DNA of 64,000 bases. Origin: an uncultured Solirubrobacterales bacterium (GTDB lineage: Bacteria; Actinomycetota; Thermoleophilia; Solirubrobacterales; 70-9). The stretch spans positions 6,641-70,640 of the forward strand of contig CAWCMK010000007.1 in assembly GCA_963796705.1 (NCBI GenBank), written 5' to 3'. The notes below the pieces were generated by a model. The model had not been told where the DNA came from. It saw only the letters and a program-made list of their open reading frames with translations, and searched no databases. Below, in pieces: positions 9,423 to 27,425 of this stretch; positions within the stretch are counted from its first letter, which is position 1; each line of letters begins with the position of its first letter. Made by a program: the position numbers and the translations under genes.

Positions 9423-9485
9423 GCCGCGATCCACACCGACGGCAGCTGCCCCGAAGTCCAAGCGTCAGGCTGTGGCAAGGCGACC

Positions 9486-9517
9486 GGGCGTCGAGGCTAA
9501 GTGTTGCCCCGACGCCC
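9486..9517. terminator. GC-rich hairpin in a convergent intergenic region, a possible bidirectional I-shaped terminator
   Basis: GGGCGTCG (9486-9493) pairs with CGACGCCC (9510-9517), and further GGC/GCC pairs are possible inside the loop. There is no U-tract on either strand. Confidence 0.3.
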
Positions 9518-9609
9518 CGAGTCACCTCACATCACGGCGCCGCCCAGGGAAGTGACGGGAGCCGATCTACGGGATCCCTGCTGTGCGATCTCGGAAAGTA
9601 CCGCACATT
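9486..9609 (-). ncRNA. Candidate small RNA (or leaderless micro-ORF transcript) driven by the orphan consensus promoter
   Basis: The predicted TSS at ~9609 is 7 nt downstream of the -10 TACAAT. The ~125-nt transcript runs to the 9486-9517 hairpin and contains a 5' stem UGUGCG...CGCACA. The longest reading frame is a 13-codon ATG ORF starting at 9608. This is purely predictive. Confidence 0.3.
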
Positions 9610-9615
9610 ACAAAA

Positions 9616-9644
9616 ATTGTAAGCTACAGTACTTCAGCTGTCAA
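9616..9644 (-). promoter_or_regulatory. Consensus sigma70/SigA-type promoter with no annotated gene behind it
   Basis: On the minus strand: TTGACA (9644-9639), 17-nt spacer, TACAAT (9621-9616). It sits in a local AT-rich island in a ~70% GC genome. The perfect palindrome TTACAA-AAA-TTGTAA (9608-9622) overlaps the -10 and the TSS. Confidence 0.55.
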
Positions 9645-9796
9645 GGGGAGCGGCCCCGCCAGTGTCGGCTTGATTGCAGCTAGGCTCGGTGGCGCACCTT
9701 GAAGGGCCGGAAAGTTACATGCGGCGAACGCCCGGTACCGGCGACGGTTTAGGTGGCTTCGAATCGCCGTTCGATCTTGCCCGGTGAGGCGCTCGA

Positions 9797-12553
9797 CTAA
9801 CCGCGCGAATGGCGCTTGTGGCGGGCGAGACGGTGCGCCTTCTTGCCGCCGCAGGAAGCCTTGAGTCGCGCGTGCTGCACCAGCGAGCTTCTGTTCTGGC
9901 CTTCGAAGCCGATTTCGATGTTCGGAACGCGGGCGCAGAGGTTCGTCGTGTTGGCGATGTAGCCGCGCGAGCCGCCATAGAGGTTGAAGACGAAACGTCC
10001 GATCGGCACGTCCGGGACCACCGGGACGACGGTCCGAAGCCCGTTCTTGGTCTCCTTCGATTCGGCTTCGGGGGTGACCATGACCTGACCGTTGAGGATG
10101 AACGCCAGGTGCGGCAGCCCGCCGTAGCCGGACACTGCGTAGGCCGGGCCTTTGAGCGGCTGTTCGAGCAGCGGAGTTTCGTCCTTCACCGCGCCGATCG
10201 CGGAGCGCCCTGCGCAGAGGTCCGAGGCGAGTTCCGCCTTCGAGCAGAGATTGCCGAGGTGTTTCTGGTCGACCTCGAACGCTCGGGGCAGGGTGACCCG
10301 CACCGACTTGATGTTCGCATCGCCCTGGTGGGTGTTCAATTCGAAGCGCAGCGCCGGATCGGCGGCTCGGCGGGTCTGCTTCTTCGAACCGTTGAGGCGT
10401 ACCGACATCTTCGGCCGGAAGGGGAGCGTCGCGCAGTCGTCGGCGTGGAAGTAGGAGGAGAATGTGGCCGCTGTTCCCTGGTCACCGACCCCTTCTGAAA
10501 CGACGCTCATCGGCGAGCAGTTGGTTGGGTTGATCATGAAGTTCGAGCGATCGATGTTCACCCTGATTTCACGCATACGGATCGGGATGCCGCCGATGAT
10601 CTCAGGCACCGTTTCCGAGTCGGCGATCACGTGCGCGTCATGCGGGTCGATTTTGAGCGCGACCCGGACCACGACGACGCCGTAGTCGTAAGGGCCCGCG
10701 AGCGCCGGCGTGATCACCGCCAGCGAGAGCGGGGCGCCTTTGAACGGTCCCGACATGTACATCTTGCCAACCGCGTGGAACGGGTGGCTGCCGGGGCCGG
10801 CGGCTACGTTGGAGGTGCCGATCTGGCTTGACGCCGGGCAGCTCGGATTCAGCTGCTCTTCGGTGCCGGACCTATTGGCCGCCTGAAGGATGGCCGCTTC
10901 CGGGCAGTAGGTGATCCCGTGCAGGTTGCCGGTCAGGCCGGGAGGCATGCTGAAGTTGAGCTTGCCCAGGTACTGGTCCCCGTCTTCGCGGTTGAGCTGG
11001 AGCGAGAAGGAGGAGAAGGCGCCGGCCAGGGAATTCGAGGTCCCCGCCGCAAGGGTCGGGTGGAAGGGTCGCACCGAGCCCGGACAGGCAAGACCGTGCG
11101 GGCCACTTTCCAAAACGAAGCCCTGGGTCGAGGTGGCGGTCGGGATGACGTGGTTCCAGGGCACGAACGTGGCCACGGTTTTGTAGTTCGTGCATTCGAT
11201 CGGGGTCGCCACCAGGCCGCGATCTGAGGAGAACAGGTGCACGTCGAAGGAGTCGAACGGGACCTGCGGCAATCCTTCGAAGTAAATGGTCAGCTGCCCG
11301 GTCTTCGGATCGGGTTTGGCCGAGCCGATCAGCTTCGCATGGAGCCCGAAGCCGTCGACGATTAGGAAGAGCCGGTATTGATCACCCGGCTCCGGTTCGC
11401 CGATGTAGATCGAGCCCTGGAGCGGCCCGGAGAGAGCCGGGGTGTGCAGCGCGACCGAGCCGATCTTGGCGCTGTCGGGGCATTCCGCCGGGGCCTCGCT
11501 GTGGAAGTGGGCGAGGGCGTCACTGCAGGCGCTCTGTCCGTCAGCCGCATCGGGGTTGATCGTCAATCCCGGTGGCAAGGTGACGATCGCGTCGTGGATC
11601 GTCGACGGAGAGACCGCGCGTCCGAGGAACTGAGCGTCCTTGAGGATAATGTCAAGGCCCGATGGCGAGTCGGTTTCATTGCTCGTCGGCCGCGAGTAGA
11701 GCAGCGGCTTGAAGAGCATCTTTTCGCAGCCTTCAACTTCGGGGTAGCTGCTGTGGGCTTCGGAAACGTTTTCGGGATCCTGATAGGTCTGGACCTTGAG
11801 CGTCGTCAGTTGTTCTTGCCCGTTGCACTCCGATGGGTTGTCGGTCAGCGGGTGCACGGGGGCACTCACCGGATTCGGCTTCGCGATGCAGCTCGCGTCC
11901 GCCAGGCCCACGCATCCGGACGGGCGGCCGCTGGCCCCCCTCGGGAAGCGCTGGCCTTCGTGGACGTTGTCCGTCGGGAATCCCCAGAAGGTCAGGTCGG
12001 CGCCGGCCAGGGGCGTCACCTGCGTGATCTCGGAAACCTTGAAGTTCAGTCCGTAGTCGCTTCCCGTCCGTACCGAGACCGGAATCTGGATCGGGATGTT
12101 CAACGTCGGGACTATAAAACCGAAGAGAGCCGTCTCAGCTTCGGAGGGTTCGAGGTCATAGATCGGCGCGGTTCCAAGGAGATAGTTCGAGTTGCCTTCG
12201 TAGCGGGCGCGGATCGTGATCAGCCCGGCCTGGGTCGTCGGCGGGCATTCCTCCTGGGCGAAGACGACCGAGGTGCACCGTTCAAGTGAGTTCGGATTGC
12301 CGAAGATGCCTTCGGGCGTTTCCACCGTGACATTCTCGGCCGCCTCCGGAATCCCCGGGCTTTCCAGGGCGAAGGAGGTGTGCAGATCGGGATGACCTCC
12401 GGCCTGGGTCGTCGAGGCTTCCGTCGTGAAAGATTCGATGCCCTCGGTCGCCTGCGCGGTTCCGGCACCGAGTAAGGCGGCGAGAAGCAAGGCCACGCCC
12501 AGGGTCAGCCCGAATGCGCGCAGCATGCCGGTGGTCGATTGTCCAGCGGTCAT
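9797..12553 (-). CDS. Giant secreted protein D (918 aa), paralogue of B, with four Cys-bracketed beta modules and a polybasic C-terminal tail
   Basis: Signal peptide MLRAFGLTLGVALLLAALLGAGTAQA. Conserved with B: TQAGGHPDL, DSPSGLDI, GQLTIYFEGLPQVPFDSF, KGAPLSLAVITPALAGPYDYG. The ATG at 12553 overlaps the stop of C (TGATG) and is preceded by GGGAGG. The protein ends ...KASCGGKKAHRLARHKRHSRG. Confidence 0.85.
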   Translation of the reverse strand: MTAGQSTTGMLRAFGLTLGVALLLAALLGAGTAQATEGIESFTTEASTTQAGGHPDLHTSFALESPGIPEAAENVTVETPEGIFGNPNSLERCTSVVFAQEECPPTTQAGLITIRARYEGNSNYLLGTAPIYDLEPSEAETALFGFIVPTLNIPIQIPVSVRTGSDYGLNFKVSEITQVTPLAGADLTFWGFPTDNVHEGQRFPRGASGRPSGCVGLADASCIAKPNPVSAPVHPLTDNPSECNGQEQLTTLKVQTYQDPENVSEAHSSYPEVEGCEKMLFKPLLYSRPTSNETDSPSGLDIILKDAQFLGRAVSPSTIHDAIVTLPPGLTINPDAADGQSACSDALAHFHSEAPAECPDSAKIGSVALHTPALSGPLQGSIYIGEPEPGDQYRLFLIVDGFGLHAKLIGSAKPDPKTGQLTIYFEGLPQVPFDSFDVHLFSSDRGLVATPIECTNYKTVATFVPWNHVIPTATSTQGFVLESGPHGLACPGSVRPFHPTLAAGTSNSLAGAFSSFSLQLNREDGDQYLGKLNFSMPPGLTGNLHGITYCPEAAILQAANRSGTEEQLNPSCPASSQIGTSNVAAGPGSHPFHAVGKMYMSGPFKGAPLSLAVITPALAGPYDYGVVVVRVALKIDPHDAHVIADSETVPEIIGGIPIRMREIRVNIDRSNFMINPTNCSPMSVVSEGVGDQGTAATFSSYFHADDCATLPFRPKMSVRLNGSKKQTRRAADPALRFELNTHQGDANIKSVRVTLPRAFEVDQKHLGNLCSKAELASDLCAGRSAIGAVKDETPLLEQPLKGPAYAVSGYGGLPHLAFILNGQVMVTPEAESKETKNGLRTVVPVVPDVPIGRFVFNLYGGSRGYIANTTNLCARVPNIEIGFEGQNRSSLVQHARLKASCGGKKAHRLARHKRHSRG

Positions 12554-15500
12554 CACTGTCCTCCCCCACTCCGGCCGTGCGAGCGCCTCTTGCCTTGTCG
12601 GTGCTTACGATGGTGCTTCCTGCGGTGGTGAGGCTTGACGCACTGCCCGTGACGCTTGACCTTGCCCTTGGGGCAGGTCTTGGTCGGTTCGTTCCCGGGG
12701 ACATGGTTGCCGCCGGTGCCGGTGATTGTGTTGACGTTCTGCGGGGCCGGCGTCGGGCTGCTGGCGCCGTGACACTCGTCCGAAGCTTTGCAACTGGGCG
12801 GCGGCGGCACATATGGGAAGCCGCCGTTTTCGCGGGCGTCATAGACCTTGACCAAGCTGCCGTTGATGTCCTGCGGCACCAGCGTGTCGCGGGTGAAGAA
12901 GTAGGCGTCGGTGCCGTCCGCAGTGGCGCTCAGCAGGCTCGTGTTGAAGGGGCTCACGCCGGTCGAGATCAGGCTCGTCTTGCCGTTCTCCCACTCGTAG
13001 ACGTCTTCGCGATTGTCGAGATCACTCGGCACCAGCGGATCGGTCGAGTTGAAGAACACCCGTCCGTCGTCGGTTAGGCTGAGTCCGTTGCGGGCGAGGG
13101 ACGCTTCGCCGGTCGATCGAGCGTTGGTCGGAGTGCACGAGACGCAGGCGAGCCCTTCGCCCGTAGCGTCGTAACGGAAGACCTCGGCGTGCCTGCCGTT
13201 GATGTACCCGGTCAGCGGGATGGTCGAGGTGAAGACCGCGTCGTCCCCGTTCGGGGTGATCTGGAAGTCGCCCGTGTGCCGAGTGCCGCTTTCGTTGACT
13301 GAGTCGACCACCAGCGGGCTATCGGTGCGGGGGTCGGGCGCCAGCACAAGCGGGCCGAAGCTCGCCACGTTCGCGCCTTCGGAGCCGGCGTTGGTCGCGT
13401 ACAAATTGCCGGCCGAGCTGACCGCAACCGACGTCGAGTTGCTGAGTACCTTTGCTCCGACATCCGGCCCGGGAGCCCTGCGGCCGTCGGCGTGGAAGCG
13501 CAGGATCTTGTTGCCCTCATCGACGTACACTTCGTGGCGAGTCGGATCGGCGAACATCTCGGTCGCGTTGGAGACTTCCCCCGCCCCGAATGTTTCCGTG
13601 GGGTTGCATTCCGAGTTGCACGTTGAGCCGTTGGGCAGAATCACGCGGCCGCTGCTGTCGAAGGCGAAGCGCGCGACTTCAACGCCACCGAAGCCGACGT
13701 AGAGCGTGCCCGTGGTCGGGTCGACCGCGACCCCTGTCTTCGGGGGAGATTCGTATTCCCAGGTCGAGATGATGGTCGAGCCTTTGCCCTTCTGCCAACG
13801 CTCGATGTATCCGTAATAGCCCTCGTAGTAGACCCGTCCCTGATTGTCGACTGCGATGCCGATCGGCTGAGGAGCGCCGTCGACGTAGTTCCCGGCAATG
13901 AACGTCCCGTCTTCTTCGTATTCGAAGACTCGGTTGGCCGAGTTGTTTTCCTGGTGAATCGCTATGTAGAGCACGCCATTTGGGCCCACCGCGATCCCGG
14001 CGAATTCGTGGCCGAGGTTGGGTTCGAATTCCCCGTTGTTCTGCCAGCTCGTGATCAGGTGGCCTTCGGCGTCGTACTTGCGGATTACCTGTTGGTTGCC
14101 ATCGGCCACGTAGACGTCGCCGTCTGAGGGCCCGCCGGAGTTATCGACCGCGACGAATTCCGGGTTTTCGGTCGCGCCGAAGGTGCCCTTGAATTGGTGT
14201 TCTTCCAGTGCCGGGTTGGGCCCGGTGGCGCCCGACTCCAGCGTCGAGACGAATTGTGGCGTCGCCGATCCCGGCTGGTGGAGATAGAGATTGGGCTGGT
14301 TGGCCTCGCCATCCTGAGGTTCGCTGCTGCCGTCGAGCAGTTCGGGGCTGAGGAAATAGATGCTGCCGTTTTGGGCGGCGACGCCGCCGCCGCCGCCGAC
14401 AGCGACGGCGTCGCAGTTGGCGGTTGCGGCCGTCGTGTTCCAGTGCTGGTTGACGGAGTTAGGAAGCGGGCTGCAGCTGTCTGAGTTGCCCGAACCGCCC
14501 GAGCCCTTGGAAACGAGGTGCAGGGTGGCCGAGGAGGCTCCGACCTGTGCTTCGTAGACGTCGGCCGAGTTGTCGCTGTCTTCGCCGTTGAGGCGGTCGG
14601 CGGTCGTGAAGTACACCGTGGACCCGTCTTCGGTCATCCCGTCGTAAAAGGCGCCGCTCGTCGTCCCCGGCGTCAGGTCGACGGTTTTCGACGAATCGCC
14701 GATGTTCATGTACAGGTGCCAGTAGCGGTTCCCCTTCGAGTCCTTGGAGATCAGCTGCCCGATCACGACCCGCGAGCCGTCGGCCGAGACGTCGAGCTCG
14801 GCGAGGCCGTCCGAGGTGCAGTCCATCAGGCATGGGATGCTGCCGCCGCCGGGCAGCTTCGAGATAGCGTGGGTCGATTTGGTGGCGAGGTCGCGGTCGT
14901 AGATTGCCGGGCTGCCGGCGCCGCTCTCGAATTCCGAGCTCGAGCCGAAGATCAGGTGCTTGCCGTTGGCCGAGACGGGCTTCTTGACGAGCATGGCCGC
15001 GGTGGCGCTGGGGCCCGCGTTCAGCGATCCGGCCATTCCCTGAACGAGTTCCCCGTTCGGGAGGGCGACCGGAACGCCGGTCGTACCGTCTGCGAAACAG
15101 GGTGAGCAGAGCCCGGAGCCGCCGAAGGCGAAGGTGTCCAGCGAGGCATCGGCCCCGGCCAGCGGCGAGGCGAACGATTCGGCCGAGTAGGGCAGGTTTG
15201 CCGGGATGCCGACGTAGGAGGTGCTCCAGCCGTCAGCACCTCGGGTGGCGACGTAGGGATCGAGGCCGTGGTTCGTCGGGTGTCCGCTGCCCGGGATCGC
15301 GCCGTCGTGAACCCCGTAGAGAACGCGGGTCGGGTCTTGCGCGTCGGGATAGCCACCGAACGGTTCCTGTTCGGCATTCAGATAGGACTCGACGTCATAT
15401 CCGCCGGCGTTCGCCGCGGAGACGAGCTCGTAGGCGCGGCAGTCGGCGAGCAGCGCGGCGCCGGTCTGCTGGCGGACGTGGGCGTTGGCGCACTTGTCTT

Positions 15501-17103
15501 CGAGGACCGGCGTGTAGGGGAACGTCGTGAAAGTCTCTTCGGTGGATTCGGAGGTTCCGCTCTGATTCGTCGCAACGATCACGTAGTGATAGGTCGTCCC
15601 GGCCTGTAGGCCGGTCGCTTTCGTTGTTTCCGCGATCGAGACAAGCCCGGCGCCGACCGAGGGGCTCTCCGGAGTTTCATCGCAGGTTTCCGGTTCCGTC
15701 GTGCAGTCGCCGGTCCCGTAGAGGACGTGGTAGGTCGTCGGCGCGCCTTCCGGTGTGATTTCGAAATGGAAGACGACGCTGTCGGAGTGGACGTCGGTGA
15801 TGTAAGGGTCTTCGACGACCGCCTGTTCGGAGGGAACGACTTCCTGCTCCTTGGTGCGAACGAATCCGTTGCTGTTAGCGACCTTCAGGCGGGTGTAATA
15901 GGTGCTCCCCTTGGTTAGGCCGGTGAGCGTGGCGCTGACCTTGGTCGGTGAGCTCCCGGAGATCGCCTGCCCCCCTTCGCATGGGGCTTCTTCTTCGAAG
16001 TAGATGTAGCCGTATTCGATCACGGTCCCGTATTCGAAGACGCATTCGCTCGTGGTAACGCCGTCGGGGTTGACCGAGGCATCGAGCTTCAAGGAGGTGC
16101 CCGTGATTTCCGACGGCGGTTCGTTCTGGACGTCGGGCAGGGTCACTTGGGTCTGCGGGGAGAAGATGGCAATTCTGTTTTCGTAGGCCAGGTAGTAGTA
16201 GCCGTTGACCCCGTTCATCGCGACCCAGCGCGGTTCCCCTTCATAGAGGAGGCCCGGCAGTTCGTTCCCGTGGGGATCGTATTCGACGCCTTCTTCGTAT
16301 CTGGCGGAGAACACGATCCCGGAGACAGGATCGACGTTGAAGACGTTCGAGAAACCCGCCGGCAGGCTTTCGATCACTTCACCGCTCAGGGTGAACTTCA
16401 TCAACCCGTGGCCTTCGAGCCCTCCCTGGTAGTCGATGAGTTCGTTGTTGGGCCCGGCCTGCAGTCGATAGGAGTAGCCGTACTGGCTCATGTCGACGAC
16501 GTTCCCGGTTTTCACGCCTTCCGGGTTGTATTCGTAGGCACGCTGCGAGAGAGGGGTGCCGGTCAGGAAGAAGTTCCCGGTGACCGGGCTGACCGCCATG
16601 TCGTCGGCGCCGTAGGGCAGCGGGAAGTTTCCGCCGACCGGCGCCCCGCTCGGTTCGAAGGCCCAGACATGGCTATCGATGAAGGAGTAGTCGAGGTAGA
16701 TGCGTCCCTGGTGCGGTCCGCCCGAGTTGTCCACGTCGAGCACCGGAGTCGCGCATCCGCAGGTGTCTTCGGGCGGGACTCCCATGTTGAGCACGTTGGT
16801 GCCATTGGCCGCCGGATCGGTGAACGGCAGGGGTTCGCCCTCCGAGTTGAATTTGAAGAGATTGAGGCCGCTCTGTGTCGTGACGGCGTAGACGTCTCCG
16901 GTCTGCTGGTCAACGGCGATGCTCGAGACTCCGCTCAAGGTGGTCGCCGCCGGCGAGCCGTTGAAATATTTTTCGAATTCGTGAGGCGTGTACTGGACCG
17001 CCTCCGCCGGGGCGGTTGTGCAGAGTGGCACGGCCGTCGCCAGGCAGGCGCCGATGATCGCCAGGCGGATGCGCCGCCCGAGCTTCACTTTCGAACCCGT
17101 CAT
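12553..17103 (-). CDS. Giant secreted protein C (1516 aa), paralogue of A: beta-propeller, Fn3-like, PD40/TolB-like repeats and an extra NHL-like propeller, with a polybasic C-terminal tail
   Basis: Signal peptide RIRLAIIGACLATAVPLCTTAPAEA. Fn3-like signatures (ECVFEYGTVIEYGY, TYHVLYGTG...TTYHYVIVATN). Junction motif CANAHVRQQ...LADCRAYELVS. NHL-like VYVADGNQQVIRKYDAEG. PD40-like DDGRVFFNSTDPLVPSDLDNREDVYEW. C-terminal CKASDECHG plus a K/R/H tail. The ATG at 17103 overlaps the stop of B (TGATG), with AGGAGG 8 nt upstream. Confidence 0.9.
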   Translation of the reverse strand: MTGSKVKLGRRIRLAIIGACLATAVPLCTTAPAEAVQYTPHEFEKYFNGSPAATTLSGVSSIAVDQQTGDVYAVTTQSGLNLFKFNSEGEPLPFTDPAANGTNVLNMGVPPEDTCGCATPVLDVDNSGGPHQGRIYLDYSFIDSHVWAFEPSGAPVGGNFPLPYGADDMAVSPVTGNFFLTGTPLSQRAYEYNPEGVKTGNVVDMSQYGYSYRLQAGPNNELIDYQGGLEGHGLMKFTLSGEVIESLPAGFSNVFNVDPVSGIVFSARYEEGVEYDPHGNELPGLLYEGEPRWVAMNGVNGYYYLAYENRIAIFSPQTQVTLPDVQNEPPSEITGTSLKLDASVNPDGVTTSECVFEYGTVIEYGYIYFEEEAPCEGGQAISGSSPTKVSATLTGLTKGSTYYTRLKVANSNGFVRTKEQEVVPSEQAVVEDPYITDVHSDSVVFHFEITPEGAPTTYHVLYGTGDCTTEPETCDETPESPSVGAGLVSIAETTKATGLQAGTTYHYVIVATNQSGTSESTEETFTTFPYTPVLEDKCANAHVRQQTGAALLADCRAYELVSAANAGGYDVESYLNAEQEPFGGYPDAQDPTRVLYGVHDGAIPGSGHPTNHGLDPYVATRGADGWSTSYVGIPANLPYSAESFASPLAGADASLDTFAFGGSGLCSPCFADGTTGVPVALPNGELVQGMAGSLNAGPSATAAMLVKKPVSANGKHLIFGSSSEFESGAGSPAIYDRDLATKSTHAISKLPGGGSIPCLMDCTSDGLAELDVSADGSRVVIGQLISKDSKGNRYWHLYMNIGDSSKTVDLTPGTTSGAFYDGMTEDGSTVYFTTADRLNGEDSDNSADVYEAQVGASSATLHLVSKGSGGSGNSDSCSPLPNSVNQHWNTTAATANCDAVAVGGGGGVAAQNGSIYFLSPELLDGSSEPQDGEANQPNLYLHQPGSATPQFVSTLESGATGPNPALEEHQFKGTFGATENPEFVAVDNSGGPSDGDVYVADGNQQVIRKYDAEGHLITSWQNNGEFEPNLGHEFAGIAVGPNGVLYIAIHQENNSANRVFEYEEDGTFIAGNYVDGAPQPIGIAVDNQGRVYYEGYYGYIERWQKGKGSTIISTWEYESPPKTGVAVDPTTGTLYVGFGGVEVARFAFDSSGRVILPNGSTCNSECNPTETFGAGEVSNATEMFADPTRHEVYVDEGNKILRFHADGRRAPGPDVGAKVLSNSTSVAVSSAGNLYATNAGSEGANVASFGPLVLAPDPRTDSPLVVDSVNESGTRHTGDFQITPNGDDAVFTSTIPLTGYINGRHAEVFRYDATGEGLACVSCTPTNARSTGEASLARNGLSLTDDGRVFFNSTDPLVPSDLDNREDVYEWENGKTSLISTGVSPFNTSLLSATADGTDAYFFTRDTLVPQDINGSLVKVYDARENGGFPYVPPPPSCKASDECHGASSPTPAPQNVNTITGTGGNHVPGNEPTKTCPKGKVKRHGQCVKPHHRRKHHRKHRQGKRRSHGRSGGGQ

Positions 17104-19850
17104 CAGCCGGTCCTCCTCGCCGAGCTCGCGCGCCTATGTCGGCTGCGGTTGGCTTGTTTGCCACATGACAGGCGGATCTTCGGCCGCGTGTTGGCGCGCC
17201 GATTGCTCTGGCCCGTCATTTCCACTGTCGCCCGCCGGACGTGCGAGCAGAGGTTTTCGGCGCTGGTCTGCAGGAGGCCGCGCTTGCCTCCGAGCAAGCT
17301 CAGCGTGAACCTGGTCACAGGCACGTCGGGGACCGTCTGGAAGCTGGTCCTCAACCCGCCGTTCTTGCTGCTGACGACGCCGTCAAGATTGACATCGACC
17401 TGGCCTTTGAGCGCGGCGAGGACGTCGGGCAGCTTGTGCCCGTACCCGGTGGCGAGGTAGACGGTTCCTTCCAGCGGCTTTTCGAGCAACGGGGATTCGG
17501 CGCGCGCGCTGCCCATCACGGAGTTGGCGGGACAGCTTTCGGCGGCAAATTGGACCTTGGTGCAGGTGTTGCCGATGTGGCCGTTGTCCAGGATCAACGC
17601 TGGCGGCATCGTCACAACGGCCTTCGCGATGTTCGCTTCGCCAGGCTTCGCTGTCAGAGTCGCCGTGAGCGCCGGGTTCTGGGTCCGCTTGTTGCCGCCG
17701 CGGAGCCGCAGGGCGAGCTTTGGCCCGAACGGCAGTTCGGAGCAGTTGGCAGCCTGGAACGGCACCGCCGGGCTGGCTTCGCCTCCCTGGTCCCCGAAGA
17801 CCCGGGCCTGCAGCGAGAACCGGTCGCAGTTGGTCGGGTTGAGAGTAAAACCGGAGCGGTCGAGGTTGATCAGGACCTGCCGCAGCCGCAGCGGGACGCC
17901 GTCGACGATCTGAGGCAAGGGATCGGAGACGGCCGTCAGCTGGGCGCTCGTCGGATCGACATGGATCGCGGCGCGAACCACGACGTTGCCGAGGTCGTAG
18001 GGCCCCGAGACGGCCGGCGTCACGACCGCCAGACTGAGCGGAGCGCCCTTGTAGGGGCCCGCCAGGTAGACCGAGCCCGGCAGGTGCACCGGGTGGTCCC
18101 CGGCGCCGGCGGCGGTCGAGGAGCTCCCGATCCTGGAGCTGGCCGGGCAGCGCTGGCTGGCGAGCTCTTCGAGGCCCGAGACGGTGGTCGAGGCGGCGGC
18201 GAGGGTCGAGTCGGGGCAGTAGGTGACACCCGCCAGGGTGGCGCTGAAACCGGGGGGCGTGGTCACGTCCACCCCGGTCAGGTTCTGTTCGCCGTCAGCG
18301 CGATCCAGGGTCAGCGAGAAGGGAGAGTGCTGGCCCGCGGTCCGGTCGGCGACACCGCCGTGGAAGCTCGAGTTGAAGGAGCGCACGCCATTCGAGCAGC
18401 CGCTACCGCCCGGCCCGCTGGCGAGGGTGAAGTACTGGGTCGAGGTCTGTTCAGAGATCCCGGCGTCCCAGGGGGTGAAGGTGCTGCTCACCCCGTAGGT
18501 TCCACACTGGGTCGGCGTCGCCAGCAAAGCGCGTTCGGACCCGAAGAAGTGCATGTTGAATTCGGAGAACGGGGTTTGCGGCAGATCCTGGAAGGAGATG
18601 GTCAGCTGCCCCGTCCGTTCGTCGGCGATCACCGAGCCCGCCAGCTTGACGTGGACGTTGTAGCCATTGGCGGTGAGGATCAGCCGGTAGCGATCACCGG
18701 GCAGCGGGGTCCCCAGGTAGATGTAGCCGGGTATCGGCCCGGGCAGGGCCGAACTGTTGACGCTCAGGGTCCCGACCTTCGAGTCCTCGGGGCAGTGCGC
18801 TTCTTCGCGGGTACCGATCGAAGCTTCGGCGTTCGAGCAGGAGGTCTTCCCGTCGGCGGCGTTCGGATTGATGGTGAGGCCGGCCGGCAGGGCCACGGTC
18901 GTGCCGCGAATCTCCGACGGCGAGGAGACGTTCGGGCTCGACTGCTGCGGGACCTGGAGGTCGACGTCGAGCCCGGAGGGGCTGTCGGTCGCGGTGCCGG
19001 TCGGCTGCGCGTAGAGGCTCGGGTTGAAGGTCAGCTGGTCGCAGCCCGTGGTCGGCGGGTACGGGGTGGTGGCGTTGGTCACGCCTCTGTCGTAGGAGGT
19101 GATGCTGACGTTGGCCGCCAGGTTCTGCTGGTCGCAGGTCGTCGGATTGCTGAGGAACGCCTTTTCGGGCGCGTTCGATCGGGTCGGTGGGTTCTGGCCT
19201 TCGAGGAACGAGTCCCACCCGGTCGGGAAGCGTTCGGCGTCGTTTTCCGAGGCTGCCGGCACGCCCCAGAGCTTCTCTTCGACGAAGGCGAGCGGCAGGA
19301 GGTGGGTGATGTTGACCGTGGTCACGTCGAGGCCGTAGTCGCTCTCGGTCCGCGAGTTGATCGACTGGAATATCGGGAAATGCAGGAACGGGAAGGTCAT
19401 GCCGATCAGGCCGGCATCGCCCGGATGGGGTTCGAGGTTGTATACGGCGATCAGACCGAAGCCTTCGGTGCCCGGCGGTTCGGCGTTGACGCTGATGGTC
19501 GCCGTCCCGACCTGTGTCTCGGGCGGGCAGTTTTCGGTGGCGAAGTCTTCCGCGTCACAGGTCGGCGTCGCGTGCGGGTCGCCGATCACCCCGGGAGGCA
19601 TTTCGACGTTGATATCCCTGGCATCCTGACAATCGCAGGTGGGAGGAGGGATGTGCTGGGTATAGCGATTTCCCACCCAGACCACGGTTTCGAGATTCGG
19701 GTGCCCGCCGGCCTGGGTGTTCGAGGGAGTCACTTCGAACTGGTAGATCGGGGAGTCCGCGGCAGCGCGCCCCGGCGCCAGTGCGGCGAGCAGGGCGACG
19801 GCGGCGATCGCGGTCGCGCAGAGCACGGGGATGATGCGCTTGCGTGTCAT
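17103..19850 (-). CDS. Giant secreted protein B (916 aa), paralogue of D
   Basis: I take the start at ATG 19850 (MTRKRIIPVLCATAIAAVALLAALAPGRAAA, a clean signal peptide). The ORF-track extension to 20198 overlaps the end of gene A and is low-complexity. Motifs TQAGGHPNL, DSPSGLDV, GQLTISFQDLPQTPFSEF, KGAPLSLAVVTPAVSGPYDLG. The protein ends ...RLSCGKQANRSRHRRASSARRTG. Confidence 0.85.
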   Translation of the reverse strand: MTRKRIIPVLCATAIAAVALLAALAPGRAAADSPIYQFEVTPSNTQAGGHPNLETVVWVGNRYTQHIPPPTCDCQDARDINVEMPPGVIGDPHATPTCDAEDFATENCPPETQVGTATISVNAEPPGTEGFGLIAVYNLEPHPGDAGLIGMTFPFLHFPIFQSINSRTESDYGLDVTTVNITHLLPLAFVEEKLWGVPAASENDAERFPTGWDSFLEGQNPPTRSNAPEKAFLSNPTTCDQQNLAANVSITSYDRGVTNATTPYPPTTGCDQLTFNPSLYAQPTGTATDSPSGLDVDLQVPQQSSPNVSSPSEIRGTTVALPAGLTINPNAADGKTSCSNAEASIGTREEAHCPEDSKVGTLSVNSSALPGPIPGYIYLGTPLPGDRYRLILTANGYNVHVKLAGSVIADERTGQLTISFQDLPQTPFSEFNMHFFGSERALLATPTQCGTYGVSSTFTPWDAGISEQTSTQYFTLASGPGGSGCSNGVRSFNSSFHGGVADRTAGQHSPFSLTLDRADGEQNLTGVDVTTPPGFSATLAGVTYCPDSTLAAASTTVSGLEELASQRCPASSRIGSSSTAAGAGDHPVHLPGSVYLAGPYKGAPLSLAVVTPAVSGPYDLGNVVVRAAIHVDPTSAQLTAVSDPLPQIVDGVPLRLRQVLINLDRSGFTLNPTNCDRFSLQARVFGDQGGEASPAVPFQAANCSELPFGPKLALRLRGGNKRTQNPALTATLTAKPGEANIAKAVVTMPPALILDNGHIGNTCTKVQFAAESCPANSVMGSARAESPLLEKPLEGTVYLATGYGHKLPDVLAALKGQVDVNLDGVVSSKNGGLRTSFQTVPDVPVTRFTLSLLGGKRGLLQTSAENLCSHVRRATVEMTGQSNRRANTRPKIRLSCGKQANRSRHRRASSARRTG

Positions 19851-19881
19851 CACGGGGATCAGCGTCTCGCTTGCGATCTGG

Positions 19882-22800
19882 CTAGGCACGGTTGTTCCCC
19901 CGCTTGTGCTTACGATGGTGCTTTGCCTTGTGCTTCCTCCGCTTCTGCTTGGGCTTCGACTTGTGCGCGCTCGGGTTGGGCGCGTTGCCGCGCGAGCCGA
20001 GGTCGCCTTCGCTGGTGACCGTCGGGGCGGCGGGCGCGGCGTTGCCTTCGCCATGGCACTCATCGGCGGCTTCGCAGGGCGCCAGGGCCGGTTCGTAGGG
20101 GAAGCCGCCGTCGGTGCGGGCGTCGTAGTAGGCGAGGAACGGGCCGTTGTGGTTCTGCGGCACGAGGATGTCGCGGGTCGAGAAGTAGACGTTGACACCG
20201 TCGGCGCTGACCCCCGCGAGCCCTTCTTCGCCGGCGTTGCCGGAGCCGCCGTAAATCGCGTGTCTGGTCAAGGTCGTCCCGGTCCCGGTGGTGATCAGCT
20301 GGGGCCGGCCTTCGGTGTACTCGTAGACGTCCAGCTGTTCGTTGGTGTCGGTCGGGACCAGGGGATCCTTGGTGGCGAAGAACGTCCGCCCGTCGTTCGA
20401 CATGAAGATCCCCATTTTGCTGGCTTCGACGTTGAAGGCCGGGGGCTGGCCGTCGGGGCGGCAGGAGACGCAGATGAGCTTCCGCGCGGCCGGTTCGTAG
20501 GCGTACATCTCCTTGAGGCCCACGTTGTCGTAACCGGTCAGCTTGGTGGTGGTGATGAAAGCCATGTGACCGTCGTTAGGCGAAACCTGCATACGGGTGA
20601 TCGGGCCGTGTTCCCCGCTGGACGGGTTCAACGAGGCGACGAACTGCGGCTCGCCGTTGCGGTAGACGTAGAGGTTCTCCCTGTTCGGCGTCCCCTTCCT
20701 GCCGTCGAGCTGTTCGGGCGAGTAGAAGTAGATTTCGCCGGATTCAGAGGAAATCGAGTTGTCGGTGAGAGTTTCGCCGGTGACCGCCGCGACACCACAT
20801 TGGGTCGTCCAGGTTGCGGTGCATTCGTCGCTGTTGCCGCTGCCTTCGGCTTCGGGCCCGGCTTTCGAGACGAGCGTCAGTTTGTCCCCTTCCTCACTCC
20901 ACATGTAGAGGTCGACGCTTTCGTCGGTGTCTTCGGAGGTGAGCTGTTCCGGCGAGGTGAAGAAAACCCTGGTGCCGTCGGCGGTCATGCCAACGTAGTT
21001 GACGTCTTTTTTGTCCGAGACTTCGTAGGTCACCGCGTCGTTGACCCTCATGTAGAGACGGGTGGGCTTCGGCGGTTCGTTGAAGTGGTTGTAGGGCGCG
21101 CTCGCCGTCGACATCAGGATGTGCGTCCCGTCCGTCGACACACCCGGGTGCGCGGGCGATGCCATCGAACCGTAGCCGTATCCACCGTATTCGGGATTTA
21201 CGCCTGGGAAGAGAATGGCCTCTTCGGTAGCGCTGGTGTTGCCGGGCTCCTGTTGGATGTCTTCGCCGTTCGCATCTTTGGAGATCAGCGCCGTCGTGCC
21301 GGTCGCCGCGTTGTAGTCATACGCCGAGCCGACCCCGGTCGTGAGCCCTCCGGGTGCGAATGCGATGTTGGTCGAGGAAATTGCCAGGTGGCTCAAATCC
21401 GGCGAGGGCTGGAACGCGCCTTTGCTTTCTTCGACATTCGGGATGCTTTCGAAGTTCTGTGGCCACCTTTCCAGCAGGTTTCCTTCACTGTCCCAGACGT
21501 ACGGGATGCTATGGGGCGGCTGCGGTTCTCCTTCGAAGCCACCGTTTTCGCGGAAGTCCAGGAACTTGCTGAAGTTCGCGTTGGCAAATAGCGCGCCTGC
21601 GGCGGTTCCTTCATATCCCCGCAATCCGACCAGGTGGGTTTTCCAGCCGGTGTTCGTGCGGGTCGCGATGTAGGTGTCGGCGCCAAGAGCATTGGTCGGT
21701 TCGGTTCCGTTGACGCCACCGAGGTATCCGTTGAAGGCGAACCTCGGGGGACTGACCGCGTAAGGATCCGCGTCGGGCTCGGCGTTGGTCAGCTCGACAT
21801 TGCCGGTTTCTTCGGGGGAGACGAGCTCAAAGGCGCGACAGTCCGGCAGGTACTGGCTTTCGTTCTGCTGGCGCACGGTCGAGTTAGGGCAAGTCTGCGG
21901 GTAGAAGTTGAAGCTCTGGTCTTCGGTGCGAACCGCACCCCATTTACTTTCGGCGACGACCCTGAAGTGATAGAGAACTCCCTGGAGTTCTGTGAGGTGC
22001 ACCACGACGGCTTCGGAGGCGTTGCCGGCGGGTAGCGTTTGGCTCGGAGTGACCGAGCCATACTGGGTCGTCGGCCCGTATTCGATGTAATAGGTTGTTT
22101 CGAAGCCGTGCGGATTGACCTCTGCGTCGATGTCCGCCGACGTGGCCGTCAGATGGCTGCTCGTGGCGGCTTCGATCGAGGGCAGTTCGTAGGTTTTGAA
22201 GCTCTTATCGGTCCCCTTGGAGACGCCGATCGAGTTTTCGGCGACGACGCGATAGTGATAGGTGAACCCGGGTTCCAGGCCCGTGATTTCGGAGGAGACG
22301 TGGGTCAGTTCCGTCGTCACGCCGGCGTCTTCGCCAGGCGGAATCGCGGTCTTGTGACCGTAGGCGGTGGTCTGGCCCCATTCAAAGTAGTAATGGGTGT
22401 CTTCTCCGGTCCCTTCGTATTTGGCGTTGAGAAGGGCCGAGTTCTGGGTAATTTCCGTAGCCGCTTCGGTGCCAAGGCCTTTGACGTTGTGCGGTGTGAT
22501 GGTCTTGTCGGCACCCCTGCCGATGACGTGCGGTTCACCGTTTGTCAGCACAAGGCGGTAGTGGTAGGTTTCCTCGCCAACGAGTCCCGGCAGGTTCGCG
22601 TGGACCGTCTCTTCGCTTGAAATCGGCGTCGACTCCGAGCAGTTCTGTTTGCTGCCGTAGGCGCTCGTCAGGCCGTATTCGAAATAGCATTCGGTGATCG
22701 GACCGACCCCATTGGGATCCGCAGTGCCGCTCACTTCGCTGTTCCCCGTCGGTTCGCCGGTTGTCGCCTTCGGGGTGGTTAGCCCGAGGTATTCGACTAT

Positions 22801-23730
22801 GTAGCCGCTGGAGCCCGAGCCGATGGTGACGAAGAGGGTGTCGGTCGCTTCGTCGACGGCGAGGCCGTGCCCTCCGTTTTCGGGGAGGGTGATCGTTTCA
22901 ACGAGACTCGCGGTTTCGGTGTCATAAACATTGACAGTCGTGCCGCCGTTGCCAACGTAGAGCTTGTGTTCGGCGTCGTTGACGGCGAGGCCAGGTTCGC
23001 CTGAAGGCGCCGGGAAGCTGAGTTTGGTCGTGTAGCCGCTTTCGGCGGTGAACTTGACCAGCTGGCCGCCGCCGTAGGAGGCGGCATAAACGTCACCGTT
23101 TGCGTGATCGACTGCAAGCTTGCAGAGGCTGAAACCGATTTCGATCGATCCAGTGGCGGTCCCAGCAGCCGAGTATTTGAAGACTTTGTGTTGCGTGTAG
23201 TCGCCGGCCCAGGGTCCGCCACCCGGCCCGACGTCAACGCCGCAGATTTCGCCGCCGCCAGGGATGACGACCGGCCACGGCGCGCCGAGCGCGTTACCGC
23301 TCGAGTTCCAGCCGTAGATCCTTTCGCTGCTGCCGGACTGGACGCCGTAGATGTTGCCGGCCCCCGAGCTTTCCACTTCGATGTCGGGTTCCCCGCATTC
23401 GGTGCTGATCCCGGCACTGAAGGGGAATTTGCCGCCGAGTGGAGTCGCCGATCCGGAGCTGATGGCGAGGCCGTAGATCTTGCCTTCAGAGGCGAGGTAG
23501 AGGTCCCCGGAAGAGCCGTTGTAGGCGATGTGGCAGCCAAAGCCGACACCGCTCGATTTCGGGCCTTCCTTGCCGTATTCGCCGGTGACTTCGGTATGTT
23601 CGCTGGCGAGGCTCTGTGACACCGGCAGGGCGAGCAGCAACCAGGCCGCGGCGCAGAAGGTTGCGACACCGGCGCGCACCGATGCGGTCCTCAGGCGATC
23701 GCCGCGGCCCAGGTTCTCCTCTGCCCTCAA
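19882..23730 (-). CDS. Giant secreted protein A (1282 aa): N-terminal beta-propeller-like region, three Fn3-like units, PD40/TolB-like repeats and a polybasic C-terminal tail
   Basis: TTG start at 23730 with AAGGAG 7 nt upstream. Signal peptide VATFCAAAWLLLALPVSQSLA-SE. Fn3-like signatures ECYFEYGLTSAYG, HYYFEWGQTTAYG, TYYIEYGPTTQYG, each followed by (T/L)YH(Y/F)R(L/V)V. Junction CPNSTVRQQ...LPDCRAFELVS. PD40-like NDGRTFFATKDPLVPTDTNEQLDVYEY. C-terminal CEAADECHG and KSKPKQKRRKHKAKHHRKHKRGNNRA. Confidence 0.9.
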   Translation of the reverse strand: MRAEENLGRGDRLRTASVRAGVATFCAAAWLLLALPVSQSLASEHTEVTGEYGKEGPKSSGVGFGCHIAYNGSSGDLYLASEGKIYGLAISSGSATPLGGKFPFSAGISTECGEPDIEVESSGAGNIYGVQSGSSERIYGWNSSGNALGAPWPVVIPGGGEICGVDVGPGGGPWAGDYTQHKVFKYSAAGTATGSIEIGFSLCKLAVDHANGDVYAASYGGGQLVKFTAESGYTTKLSFPAPSGEPGLAVNDAEHKLYVGNGGTTVNVYDTETASLVETITLPENGGHGLAVDEATDTLFVTIGSGSSGYIVEYLGLTTPKATTGEPTGNSEVSGTADPNGVGPITECYFEYGLTSAYGSKQNCSESTPISSEETVHANLPGLVGEETYHYRLVLTNGEPHVIGRGADKTITPHNVKGLGTEAATEITQNSALLNAKYEGTGEDTHYYFEWGQTTAYGHKTAIPPGEDAGVTTELTHVSSEITGLEPGFTYHYRVVAENSIGVSKGTDKSFKTYELPSIEAATSSHLTATSADIDAEVNPHGFETTYYIEYGPTTQYGSVTPSQTLPAGNASEAVVVHLTELQGVLYHFRVVAESKWGAVRTEDQSFNFYPQTCPNSTVRQQNESQYLPDCRAFELVSPEETGNVELTNAEPDADPYAVSPPRFAFNGYLGGVNGTEPTNALGADTYIATRTNTGWKTHLVGLRGYEGTAAGALFANANFSKFLDFRENGGFEGEPQPPHSIPYVWDSEGNLLERWPQNFESIPNVEESKGAFQPSPDLSHLAISSTNIAFAPGGLTTGVGSAYDYNAATGTTALISKDANGEDIQQEPGNTSATEEAILFPGVNPEYGGYGYGSMASPAHPGVSTDGTHILMSTASAPYNHFNEPPKPTRLYMRVNDAVTYEVSDKKDVNYVGMTADGTRVFFTSPEQLTSEDTDESVDLYMWSEEGDKLTLVSKAGPEAEGSGNSDECTATWTTQCGVAAVTGETLTDNSISSESGEIYFYSPEQLDGRKGTPNRENLYVYRNGEPQFVASLNPSSGEHGPITRMQVSPNDGHMAFITTTKLTGYDNVGLKEMYAYEPAARKLICVSCRPDGQPPAFNVEASKMGIFMSNDGRTFFATKDPLVPTDTNEQLDVYEYTEGRPQLITTGTGTTLTRHAIYGGSGNAGEEGLAGVSADGVNVYFSTRDILVPQNHNGPFLAYYDARTDGGFPYEPALAPCEAADECHGEGNAAPAAPTVTSEGDLGSRGNAPNPSAHKSKPKQKRRKHKAKHHRKHKRGNNRA

Positions 23731-23842: not shown

Positions 23843-23872
23843 ACTGTAAACGGGTTCGTGCATTTTTGTCAA
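23843..23872 (-). promoter_or_regulatory. Predicted promoter of the A-B-C-D operon
   Basis: On the minus strand: TTGACA (23872-23867), 18-nt spacer, TACAGT (23848-23843). This predicts a ~105-nt leader before the AAGGAG/TTG start of gene A. The -35 lies inside motif site 1. Confidence 0.55.
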
Positions 23873-23910: not shown

Positions 23911-25308
23911 GTGTCAGCGATCGGACATTTCGCTGTCATATCTCGTACACGCCAAATAATGGCCTGCGGGTTATGGTCTGCCGCCGGGATGGTGCCTGGG
24001 GAGCTAGGTTCTCAGCCGGTCGAGCCGCTTTTCCCTCAGCTCATCGAGGGACTGCGGGGCATGCCTCCTGCCGCGGTCGCAGAGCACCAGCGCATCCGGC
24101 TCGAGGCGGCGATGGTCGAGGCGGTGGCCCGTCATGGATACGCCGGGACAACCCTGCGCGAGCTCGTTCGGATCGCAGGCGTTTCCAAGTCGACCTTCTA
24201 CGACCACTTCGAGACCAAGCAGGACGCGTTCCTTGCAACCGCGGACTCGATCGTGACCCAGATCAGCGAACGGGTGCGGGTCGCCTATCGGGAGGGCTCA
24301 GACCATCGCGACCGACTCGTCCGGGCGCTCGCCACCTTCATGGATCTGGTCGCCAGCGAGCCGCAGGCCGCCACACTGACCATCGTCGAGACGCTCAGCC
24401 TCGGCCGGGCTGGGATCGAGGCCCGCGATCGCGGCTCGGAGGTATTCGAAGAGGCCTTGCGGAGCAGCTTCGAAAGCTCGGCCTCCAAGGTCGAGGTCCC
24501 GCTGCGCACCGTCAACGCGATAGCCGCCGGATTTCGCGGCGTCGTCTACCGCAACCTGCGCGCCGGCACCGCCAGCGCACTTCCCGGCCTCGTCGAGGCA
24601 TTGGCCGACTGGGCCCTCGGATATCAGGTGGCACCGAACGCCGCGGTGCGGCGCGCCGCCGTGGCGGCGGCCAGGCCGGCACCGGCCGCCGAGCGGAACG
24701 CCGAGGCACTCGATTGGAGCGAGCCTCCGGACAGCCCTCGCAGTCGTGTCCAGCTGAGCCAGCGCGAGCGAATCGTCCGCGCAATCGGCCTCCTGGTCGT
24801 CGAGAGAGGCTATGAGACACTGACGATTCCCGCGATCTCCGCGACCGCCGGGACATCGAATCAGACCTTCTACGAACACTTTGAAAACAAACGCGAGGCC
24901 TTCGTGGCGGCATTTGACGACAGCGCCGCCGAGGCCCTGGAGGCGACAACCCGTGCCTTCCGAACCTCCCAGGGCCCGGAGGCAATCGGGGTCGCACTGC
25001 GCGCGATGCTCCAATACATCGCCGCCCACCCGCTCTTCGCTCGGCTTGCCTTCTTCGATCTGCAGACCGCCGGCCCGGCGGCGCTGGACCGCGCAGATTC
25101 CGTGATGAGAAGCTTCGGTGCATTCCTGGAACCAGGCGTGGCTCCCGAGGAGCTCAACGTCGGGCCGTCGGAGACCGTCCTGCAGGCGATAACCAGCGGT
25201 GCCTGGGGCGTAATCCAGCATGAGCTTGCACACGAGAAAATCGAGACGCTGCCCGAGCTCGCCCCAGAGCTTGCCCAGATAGTCCTTGGGTCGCTACCCT
25301 CGACCTAG
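23911..25308 (+). CDS. Single-chain double TetR-family regulator (two complete TetR units in one polypeptide)
   Basis: First HTH: GYAGTTLRELVRIAGVSKSTFYDHFETKQDAF. Second HTH ~220 aa later: GYETLTIPAISATAGTSNQTFYEHFENKREAF. Each is followed by a helical ligand-domain-sized region. The start is uncertain (GTG 23911, ATG 23959 or later). Confidence 0.8.
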   Translation: MSAIGHFAVISRTRQIMACGLWSAAGMVPGELGSQPVEPLFPQLIEGLRGMPPAAVAEHQRIRLEAAMVEAVARHGYAGTTLRELVRIAGVSKSTFYDHFETKQDAFLATADSIVTQISERVRVAYREGSDHRDRLVRALATFMDLVASEPQAATLTIVETLSLGRAGIEARDRGSEVFEEALRSSFESSASKVEVPLRTVNAIAAGFRGVVYRNLRAGTASALPGLVEALADWALGYQVAPNAAVRRAAVAAARPAPAAERNAEALDWSEPPDSPRSRVQLSQRERIVRAIGLLVVERGYETLTIPAISATAGTSNQTFYEHFENKREAFVAAFDDSAAEALEATTRAFRTSQGPEAIGVALRAMLQYIAAHPLFARLAFFDLQTAGPAALDRADSVMRSFGAFLEPGVAPEELNVGPSETVLQAITSGAWGVIQHELAHEKIETLPELAPELAQIVLGSLPST

Positions 25309-27350: not shown

Positions 27351-27358
27351 GGCGCGGC

Positions 27359-27388
27359 AGCTTACGCAGGCTTCACCGAAAATGTCAA
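27359..27388 (-). promoter_or_regulatory. Predicted promoter of the frameshifted TetR gene (near-leaderless)
   Basis: On the minus strand: TTGACA (27388-27383), 18-nt spacer, TAAGCT (27364-27359), then 8 nt before GTG 27350. Confidence 0.5.
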
Positions 27389-27397
27389 GAGCGGTAC
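27383..27397 (+). promoter_or_regulatory. Motif site 3: TGTCAAGAGCGGTAC
   Basis: Exact match to TGTCAAG-N4-GTAC. It overlaps the -35 of the promoter above. Confidence 0.5.
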
Positions 27398-27425
27398 ATC
27401 AAATCGATCGGCGATCGACGGTAAC

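Follow-up and report, generated by a model that had tools for sequence, protein, structure and literature searches.

Here we describe a four-gene operon (genes A to D, positions 9797-23730 on the minus strand) in a stretch of 64,000 nucleotides (nt), hereafter the window, from the metagenome-assembled genome (MAG) of an uncultured Solirubrobacterales bacterium (GenBank assembly GCA_963796705.1, contig CAWCMK010000007.1). A preceding sequence-only reading of the window had proposed that the operon encodes four giant secreted proteins organised as a duplicated two-gene module. The list of open reading frames (ORFs) and their translations confirm all four ORFs at the coordinates collected in Table 1, as well as the TTG start of A at 23730 with AAGGAG 8 nt upstream; public annotation of the contig places the start of A (P0241, 1282 amino acids (aa), 100 %) at the same codon. 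Genes B and C, as well as C and D, are joined by 1-nt TGATG overlaps, preceded by AGGAGG and GGGAGG, respectively. The spacing of 31 bp given earlier for A and B has to be corrected: the gap is 28 nt if B starts at its ATG (19853), and in the public annotation B (P0121, 928 aa) begins at GTG 19889, with an 8-nt overlap with the A stop that is also present in related loci. A Shine-Dalgarno sequence stands before this junction, too. Tight junctions (small overlaps or gaps of up to ~30 nt) are likewise found in related loci, and those in the window support the proposal that the two paralogous gene pairs form one closely coupled unit of transcription. The only good candidate for driving the four genes is a promoter-like site ahead of A (Table 1), and no convincing internal terminator was found in the operon (13 terminator-like sites vs. 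14.3 expected). No Rfam family or tRNA is matched anywhere in the window, and the leader of A would, thus, hold no riboswitch.

Two families of large proteins with predicted export signals

Genes A and C are paralogues (28-37 % identity across the Fn3, junction and C-terminal regions). The plan of A comprises a signal peptide (residues ~1-42), an NHL six-blade propeller (~45-330), three Fn3 domains (~330-610), a CPN..VRQQ..LPDCRAFELVSP junction with a large PD40/TolB-type propeller (~611-1230), a PCEAADECHG motif, and a polybasic tail (~1245-1282). The product of C shares this plan, with a second NHL propeller inserted at ~960-1250 and the polybasic tail at ~1470-1516; this insert, suspected from the sequence, is substantiated by direct matches of residues 963-1174 to PknD and TRIM3 (E 1.5e-5). 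When a profile built from 80 A-type sequences was compared with PDB, the N-terminal ~280 residues (profile positions ~55-326) were identified as an NHL six-blade propeller, with matches to the Mycobacterium tuberculosis PknD sensor (E 3.5e-15), to the PknD-derived designs Pizza6/Pizza7 (E down to 2.9e-27) and to the NHL domains of TRIM2/3. The assignment to NHL rests on this profile, as single-sequence Pfam NHL matches fall under the cut-off. The Fn3 region of the same profile matches titin Fn3 domains (E 4e-19), and the Pfam fn3 model scores 30.9 bits in C (cut-off 25) and 22.3 bits, just short of it, in A. Fn3, in C only, is the single Pfam family past its cut-off; the NHL, SGL and PD40 matches are weak, and a Pfam scan of A and C at E <= 0.1 returned only Fn3, PhoD_N, Pur_ac_phosph_N, NHL, SGL and DUF7453. 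NCBIfam gave no meaningful match to A or C.

The C-terminal region of A carries DG..V.F.S....D.N...DVY repeats of PD40 type, and its profile has no PDB sequence match. An AlphaFold model of A residues 600-1282 (predicted local distance difference test, pLDDT, 83.8; predicted template modelling score, pTM, 0.85) is nearly all beta, with ~36 strands and a single short helix of at least four residues. Its Foldseek matches include acylaminoacyl peptidase, prolyl oligopeptidase, DPP4, tricorn, TolB and the ten-blade sortilin Vps10p domain (probability 1.0, E 3e-9 to 2e-7, template modelling (TM) scores up to 0.38). Invariant polar residues (R, D, S, E, H) accompany the ECHG motif in the C-terminal domain of both A and C. 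Overall, A and C are predicted to consist of two or three beta-propellers on an Fn3 stalk. The earlier statement that only binding or scaffold folds are recognisable stands in that the proteins are built of these. To speak of no recognisable domain would be too strong for A and C, given a clear NHL head (E 1e-15 to 1e-27) and a TolB/S9-type propeller recognised by fold.

Two known propeller systems help to place this architecture. The A/C head resembles PknD and other NHL propellers by sequence profile, and the PknD propeller is also an extracellular domain of an actinobacterial protein; the A/C propeller, however, is not mounted on a transmembrane kinase but heads a secreted protein of 1.3-1.5 kaa with Fn3 domains and a second, far larger propeller. 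We know of no ligand of the PknD propeller. The likeness to TolB is confined to the fold (TMq 0.20-0.21, TMt 0.29-0.31). Neither TolB_N nor PD40 reaches its Pfam cut-off in A-D, no pal/tolA-like gene was detected by Pfam among the flanking genes checked, and the A propeller, with ~36 strands, exceeds the six-blade propeller of TolB in size and adds the C..DECHG motif and a polybasic tail. A Tol-Pal envelope system, in which TolB is the periplasmic partner of Pal in diderms, is, moreover, not expected in an actinomycetotal host.

Genes B and D are likewise paralogues, as proposed, and can be aligned end to end (41 % identity over 891 aa). Each product comprises a signal peptide, four homologous beta-sandwich modules of ~200 aa and a basic tail. 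The four-fold internal repeat, not noted in the sequence-only reading, is evident from hhalign comparisons between module slices (probability 90-98 %, E 1e-6 to 1e-14), and every module contains a conserved Cys pair, with at least 16 invariant Cys among 106 sequences. An AlphaFold model of D (pLDDT 90, pTM 0.79) is nearly all beta, and its Foldseek matches in PDB and BFVD are generic Ig-like/beta-sandwich arrays only, with TM scores of 0.1-0.2. The best of them are multi-Ig arrays (the integrin alpha leg, the C-terminus of Streptococcus mutans AgI/II, factor XIII barrels, complement/MG domains and DUF11; E 2e-7 to 1e-4, probability up to 1.0), which are beta-sandwich chains serving as extracellular stalks or scaffolds and share 6-10 % identity with D. 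The AgI/II C-terminus, which like CnaB and SpaA belongs to the isopeptide-bonded adhesin domains of Gram-positive bacteria (a Lys-Asn/Asp triad within a DEv-IgG or CnaB fold), reaches probability 1.0 at TMt 0.23 in this comparison of folds, and Pfam gave no match to such domains. D differs from these arrays in that its repeating unit, present four times and with conserved Cys pairs, is a ~200-aa module of its own that has no Pfam or PDB-sequence match. Indeed, neither Pfam nor NCBIfam matches B or D, and a PDB sequence search with D alone or with the B/D family profile gave no match; the B/D module is covered by no library searched here.

One N-terminal hydrophobic segment per protein, read as a signal peptide, supports the prediction that all four proteins are secreted, and conserved cysteines are numerous in all of them. 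Past this segment no transmembrane anchor is apparent (maximal Kyte-Doolittle value over 19 residues <=1.6) and no LPXTG motif is present in A-D, setting them apart from sortase-anchored proteins. No SLH, LysM, GW or CWB-type wall-binding domain appeared in a Pfam scan of A-D at E <= 0.1. A C-terminal hydrophobic or transmembrane segment or LPXTG motif was likewise found in none of 148 diverse B/D-type representatives. The absence of a catalytic-domain match also held up: Pfam, NCBIfam, PADLOC (0 matches) and PHROGs (a single marginal match, in the PD40 region of C) give no enzyme family for A-D, and neither HExxH nor thioester (C.EQ) motifs occur in them. A further feature that the sequence-only reading did not note is that all four proteins end in K/R/H-rich tails (11-19 basic residues among the last 30). 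Over these 30 positions, D-like, B-like and A-like homologues have median net charges of +11, +10 and +17.5, respectively, and a polybasic C-terminus is found in 108 of the 148 diverse representatives (50 % level). The bodies of the proteins are acidic (62 K+R vs. 152 D+E in A, 67 vs. 178 in C).

Conservation of gene order and natural fusions

Searches for homologues of D and B, in which 8,000 candidates were scored, returned more than 1,700 matches each, and an A-type search returned 708 matches with uninformative names. All named homologues of D and B are labelled 'hypothetical protein', and organism names point to Solirubrobacterales or Actinobacteria MAGs. Taken together with the lack of Pfam, NCBIfam and PDB-sequence matches for B/D, this is in line with the earlier view that both families are uncharacterised. 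The B/D profile, compared with 1.84 billion cluster representatives, yielded 10,200 matches (50 % identity clusters), 4,137 of them at E <= 1e-30. Among the homologues are giants of 2,100-7,161 aa (P0361-P0368) in which B/D modules 2-4 recur over most of the length, giving as many as 17 matched stretches; of these clusters, one bears the label 'Actinobacteria bacterium' and one, wrongly, the label 'Cu/Ag efflux protein CusF'. A Pfam scan of eight giant or N-terminally extended B/D homologues (1.5-3.5 kaa) detected no enzymatic or anchor domain, only Fn3 or PD40.

At least 583 stretches in GTDB species representatives encode relatives, and the locus counts given here refer to the best 80 (82 for gene order and for a first MMPL count). 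These 80 loci all come from MAGs, 32 in number (78 loci from Solirubrobacterales, one from Paraconexibacteraceae and one from 'Actinomycetes'), a single MAG holding as many as 7 loci and one 881-kb contig 5; their D-type matches are 53-77 % identical to D. The locus in the window is, thus, not a one-off but one copy of a four-gene unit that is present several times per genome across Solirubrobacterales.

Co-occurrence of A-type and B-type genes, called for as a check on the proposed module, is complete: an A/C-type gene lies directly upstream of a B/D-type gene in 80 of 80 loci, and the A/C-type C-terminal propeller is in every one of them encoded on the same strand, with its end 228 nt (median) ahead of the B/D match. 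For an analysis of gene order, each long ORF of 82 loci was assigned to whichever of A, B, C and D it matched best. The order is B-C-D in 36 loci, where A falls outside the stretch covered, and A-B-C-D in 13 (together 49/82), while most of the remaining loci represent extended, tandem or frameshifted forms of the A-B-C-D order. In eight further loci genes of similar size (A 1236-1356, B 912-948, C 1478-1529 and D 899-909 aa) follow one another in the same order with overlapping or near-abutting junctions; in L086-L088, D is outside the stretch covered by the gene table. In a ninth locus, L002, a C-like gene truncated to 713 aa comes after A and B, and D is absent. Hence, of the duplicated A-B / C-D module suggested earlier the two paralogous pairs stand, but the unit that is conserved is the whole A-B-C-D order. 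As this order is shared by the operon copies, the A-B / C-D duplication must be older than the multiplication of the operon, and all four gene types have been retained together since.

Many B/D-type homologues are natural fusions, in which A/C-type segments lie N-terminal to a full four-module B/D body in one polypeptide (e.g., P0172, P0184, P0198, P0213, P0380, P0379, P0387, P0487 and P0492). The fused segments are either the NHL head with Fn3 or the last part of the PD40 propeller. These fusions, together with obligate adjacency and translational coupling, constitute the strongest argument that A/C and B/D proteins would physically work together.

Genomic neighbourhood of the operon

The placement of the operon beside a regulator array, pointed out earlier, is confirmed by two double TetR-family genes that lie divergently upstream of A (Table 1).

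Table 1. Coordinates of the operon, of the modules of D and of the adjoining features in the window.
Feature	Position	Strand	Description
Gene A	19882-23730	minus	1282 aa, TTG start
Gene B	17103-19853	minus	916 aa from ATG; 928 aa if GTG 19889 is used
Gene C	12553-17103	minus	1516 aa, ATG start
Gene D	9797-12553	minus	918 aa, ATG start
D module M1	11708-12442	minus	family-alignment slice 38-282
D module M2	11060-11707	minus	family-alignment slice 283-498
D module M3	10415-11059	minus	family-alignment slice 499-713
D module M4	9854-10414	minus	family-alignment slice 714-900
D basic tail	9800-9853	minus	
Promoter-like TTGACA-18-TACAGT	23843..23872	minus	~110 nt upstream of A start; consensus scan, 10/12 matches, pattern match only
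Double TetR-family regulator	23911..25308	plus	465 aa, divergent from A; Pfam TetR_N E 9e-21, two stretches
Second double TetR-family regulator	25372..26688	plus	438 aa; Pfam TetR_N E 2e-22, two stretches

In 6 of 9 loci examined, genes with TetR_N domains lie no more than 3 kb ahead of the A-type gene, and double-TetR genes (415-426 aa) also precede the A-type genes of L085 and L086. A third ORF (26814-28040, 408 aa) beside the double-TetR pair of the window has no Pfam match.

Of the 80 related loci, 15 have a gene for an MMPL-family transporter (Pfam E 1e-53) downstream of D and in the same orientation (e.g., L010:11583-14657). An initial figure of 48/82 loci with MMPL was discarded as an artefact of single-linkage clustering; phmmer combined with tblastn gave 16 loci, 15 of them with MMPL after D on the same strand. 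A transmembrane-anchored protein of ~200 aa is encoded after D in ~26 of the 80 loci and a small secreted protein in 20, and a secreted protein of ~130 aa without Pfam match often follows MMPL (e.g., L075:13122-13511). None of the MMPL, ~200-aa or small secreted protein genes is found after D in the window or in the closest orthologous locus, L001. The window does encode an orphan member of the ~200-aa family (58621-59349, minus strand, 242 aa, 45 % identical), 35 kb from the operon; it has an N-terminal transmembrane anchor, a Cys-containing C-terminal domain and N-terminal repeats that weakly match a phage tail-fibre PHROG (E 3e-4). Carbohydrate-active or peptidase genes do not recur beside the operons in related loci.

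Two genes of the window that encode small exported proteins are convergent to D. The one at 8172-8897 (plus strand) encodes a 241-aa protein with a signal peptide, H..D / HLHLSW motifs and no Pfam match, which could be a LAS/M15-type metallopeptidase, and the one at 8949-9422 (plus strand) encodes a 157-aa lipoprotein-like protein (LSAC), also without Pfam match. Genes of similar size and position (224 and 157 aa), likened on these two properties alone, are convergent to D in L001, where a TPP-enzyme gene comes next. Between the D stop and the convergent 157-aa gene (9423-9796, minus strand), there is a near-consensus promoter pattern TTGACA-17-TACAAT at 9644-9616 (11/12 matches), which is conserved in L001/L003 together with ~190 nt downstream (the -35 element is invariant, the -10 element is TACAAT vs. 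TACATT). The 183 nt downstream of it fold better than shuffled sequences (z = -3.2) and have no Rfam match; this region could be the source of a small RNA or an antisense transcript.

The operon has a G+C content of 62-65 % vs. 67-72 % in its flanks, and its plus strand shows a positive GC skew and a strongly negative AT skew. In B, C and D the G+C fraction at codon position 1 (GC1) is ~0.60 vs. 0.70-0.80 in most neighbours, and at position 3 (GC3) it is 0.82-0.85. As the shift affects mainly codon position 1 and GC3 is held, the low G+C of the operon can be ascribed to amino-acid composition. Recent horizontal transfer is not indicated, the low G+C being poor evidence for it in view of the steady GC3 and the orthologous operon in the same context in a related MAG (L001).

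A putative surface complex and its alternatives

The interpretation that we tentatively prefer is that the operon products are exported by Sec and form a hetero-oligomeric complex at the cell surface, which would be non-enzymatic, serve in binding or scaffolding and be retained by its basic tails. A-D would be exported and oxidatively folded outside the cell, where A would pair with B, and C with D, in a heteromeric complex with B/D as a rigid scaffold and the A/C propellers as ligand-binding heads. Retention at the surface would be non-covalent, the polybasic tails binding anionic envelope polymers or, alternatively, neighbouring subunits, either at their acidic bodies or in their propeller tunnels. 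Expression would be conditional, with the operon turned on when the adjacent TetR-type repressors are relieved, and the products of the diverged operon copies of a genome may differ in the specificity with which they adhere to, or capture, ligands in the environment. The cell-envelope, adhesion or assembly function put forward by the sequence-only reading is, in the same way, something that we infer.

Non-covalent retention is familiar from SLH, LysM, GW and CWB2 domains, from the basic regions of Lactobacillus S-layer proteins and from the lysine-rich C-terminus of mycobacterial HBHA. The concept shared with Gram-positive bacteria is that secreted proteins without a transmembrane or sortase signal bind anionic wall polymers (PMC5817068). 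The candidate tail anchor described here is a bare low-complexity K/R/H stretch of 15-45 residues after a conserved Cys. A literature search on surface proteins of Solirubrobacterales/Thermoleophilia and on anchoring by polybasic tails retrieved nothing relevant, and neither the four-gene organisation nor a bare polybasic tail as a candidate retention signal is described in any library or literature searched.

Several points weigh against the preferred interpretation. The anchoring role of the tails is purely what we infer, binding to the wall would presuppose anionic polymers in these organisms, and the review of monoderm surface anchoring cited above contains no mechanism using a bare polybasic tail (PMC5817068). 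Adjacency and fusions demonstrate a functional link and not a physical complex. The idea of diversified specificity is weak because the A-type head is not hypervariable: hypervariable A/C heads were considered as a difference between paralogues and rejected, since the head can be aligned in ~80 % of A-type homologues and, at ~50 % identity, is as conserved as the remainder of the protein. A cryptic catalytic site is conceivable because NHL/SGL-type propellers include lactonases and DFPase. Furthermore, the MMPL gene directly after D in about one fifth of the related loci hints at a transport-linked role of which the proposed complex makes no use.

A more far-reaching version would see in A-B-C-D a previously unrecognised hetero-oligomeric surface machine that is a hallmark of Solirubrobacterales, an order ranking with the most abundant among soil bacteria, is made from the undescribed B/D family, docks by its tails onto wall polymers or partner propellers independently of sortase and SLH, and has its own TetR switch for each copy; we regard this version as rather doubtful. 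The folds involved are common binding folds, and current evidence points to no unprecedented mechanism. It is possible that the proteins are simply large adhesins of an ordinary type.

The same combination of large, acidic, disulfide-rich, all-beta secreted proteins with confident compact models (pTM 0.79 and 0.85) and a fixed four-component stoichiometry could also build an S-layer-like lattice or sheath around the cell, which would be fastened to the wall by the basic tails, with alternative coats encoded by the paralogous operons. The charge dipole of acidic body and basic tail suits lattice attachment, and these genes take up much genomic space, with 5 or more operons on the 881-kb contig and no fewer than 7 D-type loci in a single MAG. 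Such a coat is, nevertheless, unlikely, as S-layers usually consist of one or two highly and constitutively expressed proteins, as opposed to four proteins in many diverged copies next to TetR repressors; no SLH or other known S-layer anchoring domain is detected by Pfam, no S-layer protein is among the top 50 Foldseek matches of D, and we found no literature on an S-layer in Solirubrobacterales. The MMPL neighbours, often accompanied by the small secreted and transmembrane-anchored ~200-aa proteins, would be accounted for if A-D were an envelope transport accessory to MMPL (RND-type) exporters, conducting or accepting, outside the cytoplasm, a hydrophobic product such as a lipid or glycolipid that the TetR proteins sense. 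TolB-type propellers work in trans-envelope systems, and the upstream TetR regulators include double-TetR proteins, an architecture known from Mce3R. Indeed, the organisation recalls Mce operons and MmpL/MmpS loci (several diverged copies of a fixed multi-gene unit, paralogous secreted components, TetR adjacent and MMPL beside some copies), but the resemblance is organisational only, with no Mce, YrbE or MmpS domains or transmembrane segments in A-D. Since most loci, the window and L001 included, lack an adjoining MMPL gene, none of the four proteins has a transmembrane segment or a recognisable lipid-binding fold, and TetR adjacency is weak evidence in Actinomycetota, where TetR regulators are very common, we consider this role quite improbable.

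An extracellular enzyme complex for the breakdown of soil polymers, with a catalytic propeller (lactonase, lyase or phosphotriesterase) and B/D as carrier or substrate-binding scaffold, could explain the invariant polar residues of the A/C C-terminal domain, and it draws on weak matches of the A-type head profile to DFPase and streptogramin B lactonase (E ~1e-5) and on weak SGL and strictosidine-synthase-like Pfam matches. The NHL matches of the head are, however, far stronger, the best by far being non-catalytic sensor propellers (PknD and Pizza, E 1e-15 to 1e-27), and no match reaches the cut-off of any enzyme family in Pfam or NCBIfam. Neither does the C-terminal propeller qualify A as an S9 peptidase (prolyl oligopeptidase, DPP4, acylaminoacyl peptidase): the model of residues 600-1282 is without the alpha/beta-hydrolase domain that makes these enzymes active, no Peptidase_S9 Pfam match was found, and GxSxG strings in A-D occur only in Fn3 or loop regions. 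With no recurrent carbohydrate-active or peptidase neighbours in addition, an enzymatic complex has little to recommend it. Least credible of all is a defensive decoy or trap against phages, proteases or competitors, e.g., of the alpha-2-macroglobulin type, with the paralogues as products of an arms race. The multiple copies diverged within genomes would fit such a role, and Foldseek matches of D include the MG-domain arrays of complement C3/C5, CD109, A2ML1 and Salmonella alpha-2-macroglobulin; but these are generic beta-sandwich arrays matched with TM scores of only 0.04-0.12, and the thioester motif, an A2M Pfam match and a PADLOC match are all missing. Moreover, the paralogues are old, have orthologues in other MAGs and lack a hypervariable head, which argues against rapid arms-race turnover.

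Solirubrobacterales are abundant in soils and poorly studied, being known largely from MAGs. These bacteria devote a notable share of their genomes to an undescribed four-protein secreted system, at ~13.5 kb per operon, and the B/D module represents a large unannotated family that deserves a family definition. Clear starting points for experiments are the A-B-C-D order, which is fixed, the natural fusions and the TetR switches. Should the polybasic tails serve as a signal for retention or assembly, they would constitute a new way for Gram-positive bacteria to display proteins at their surface.

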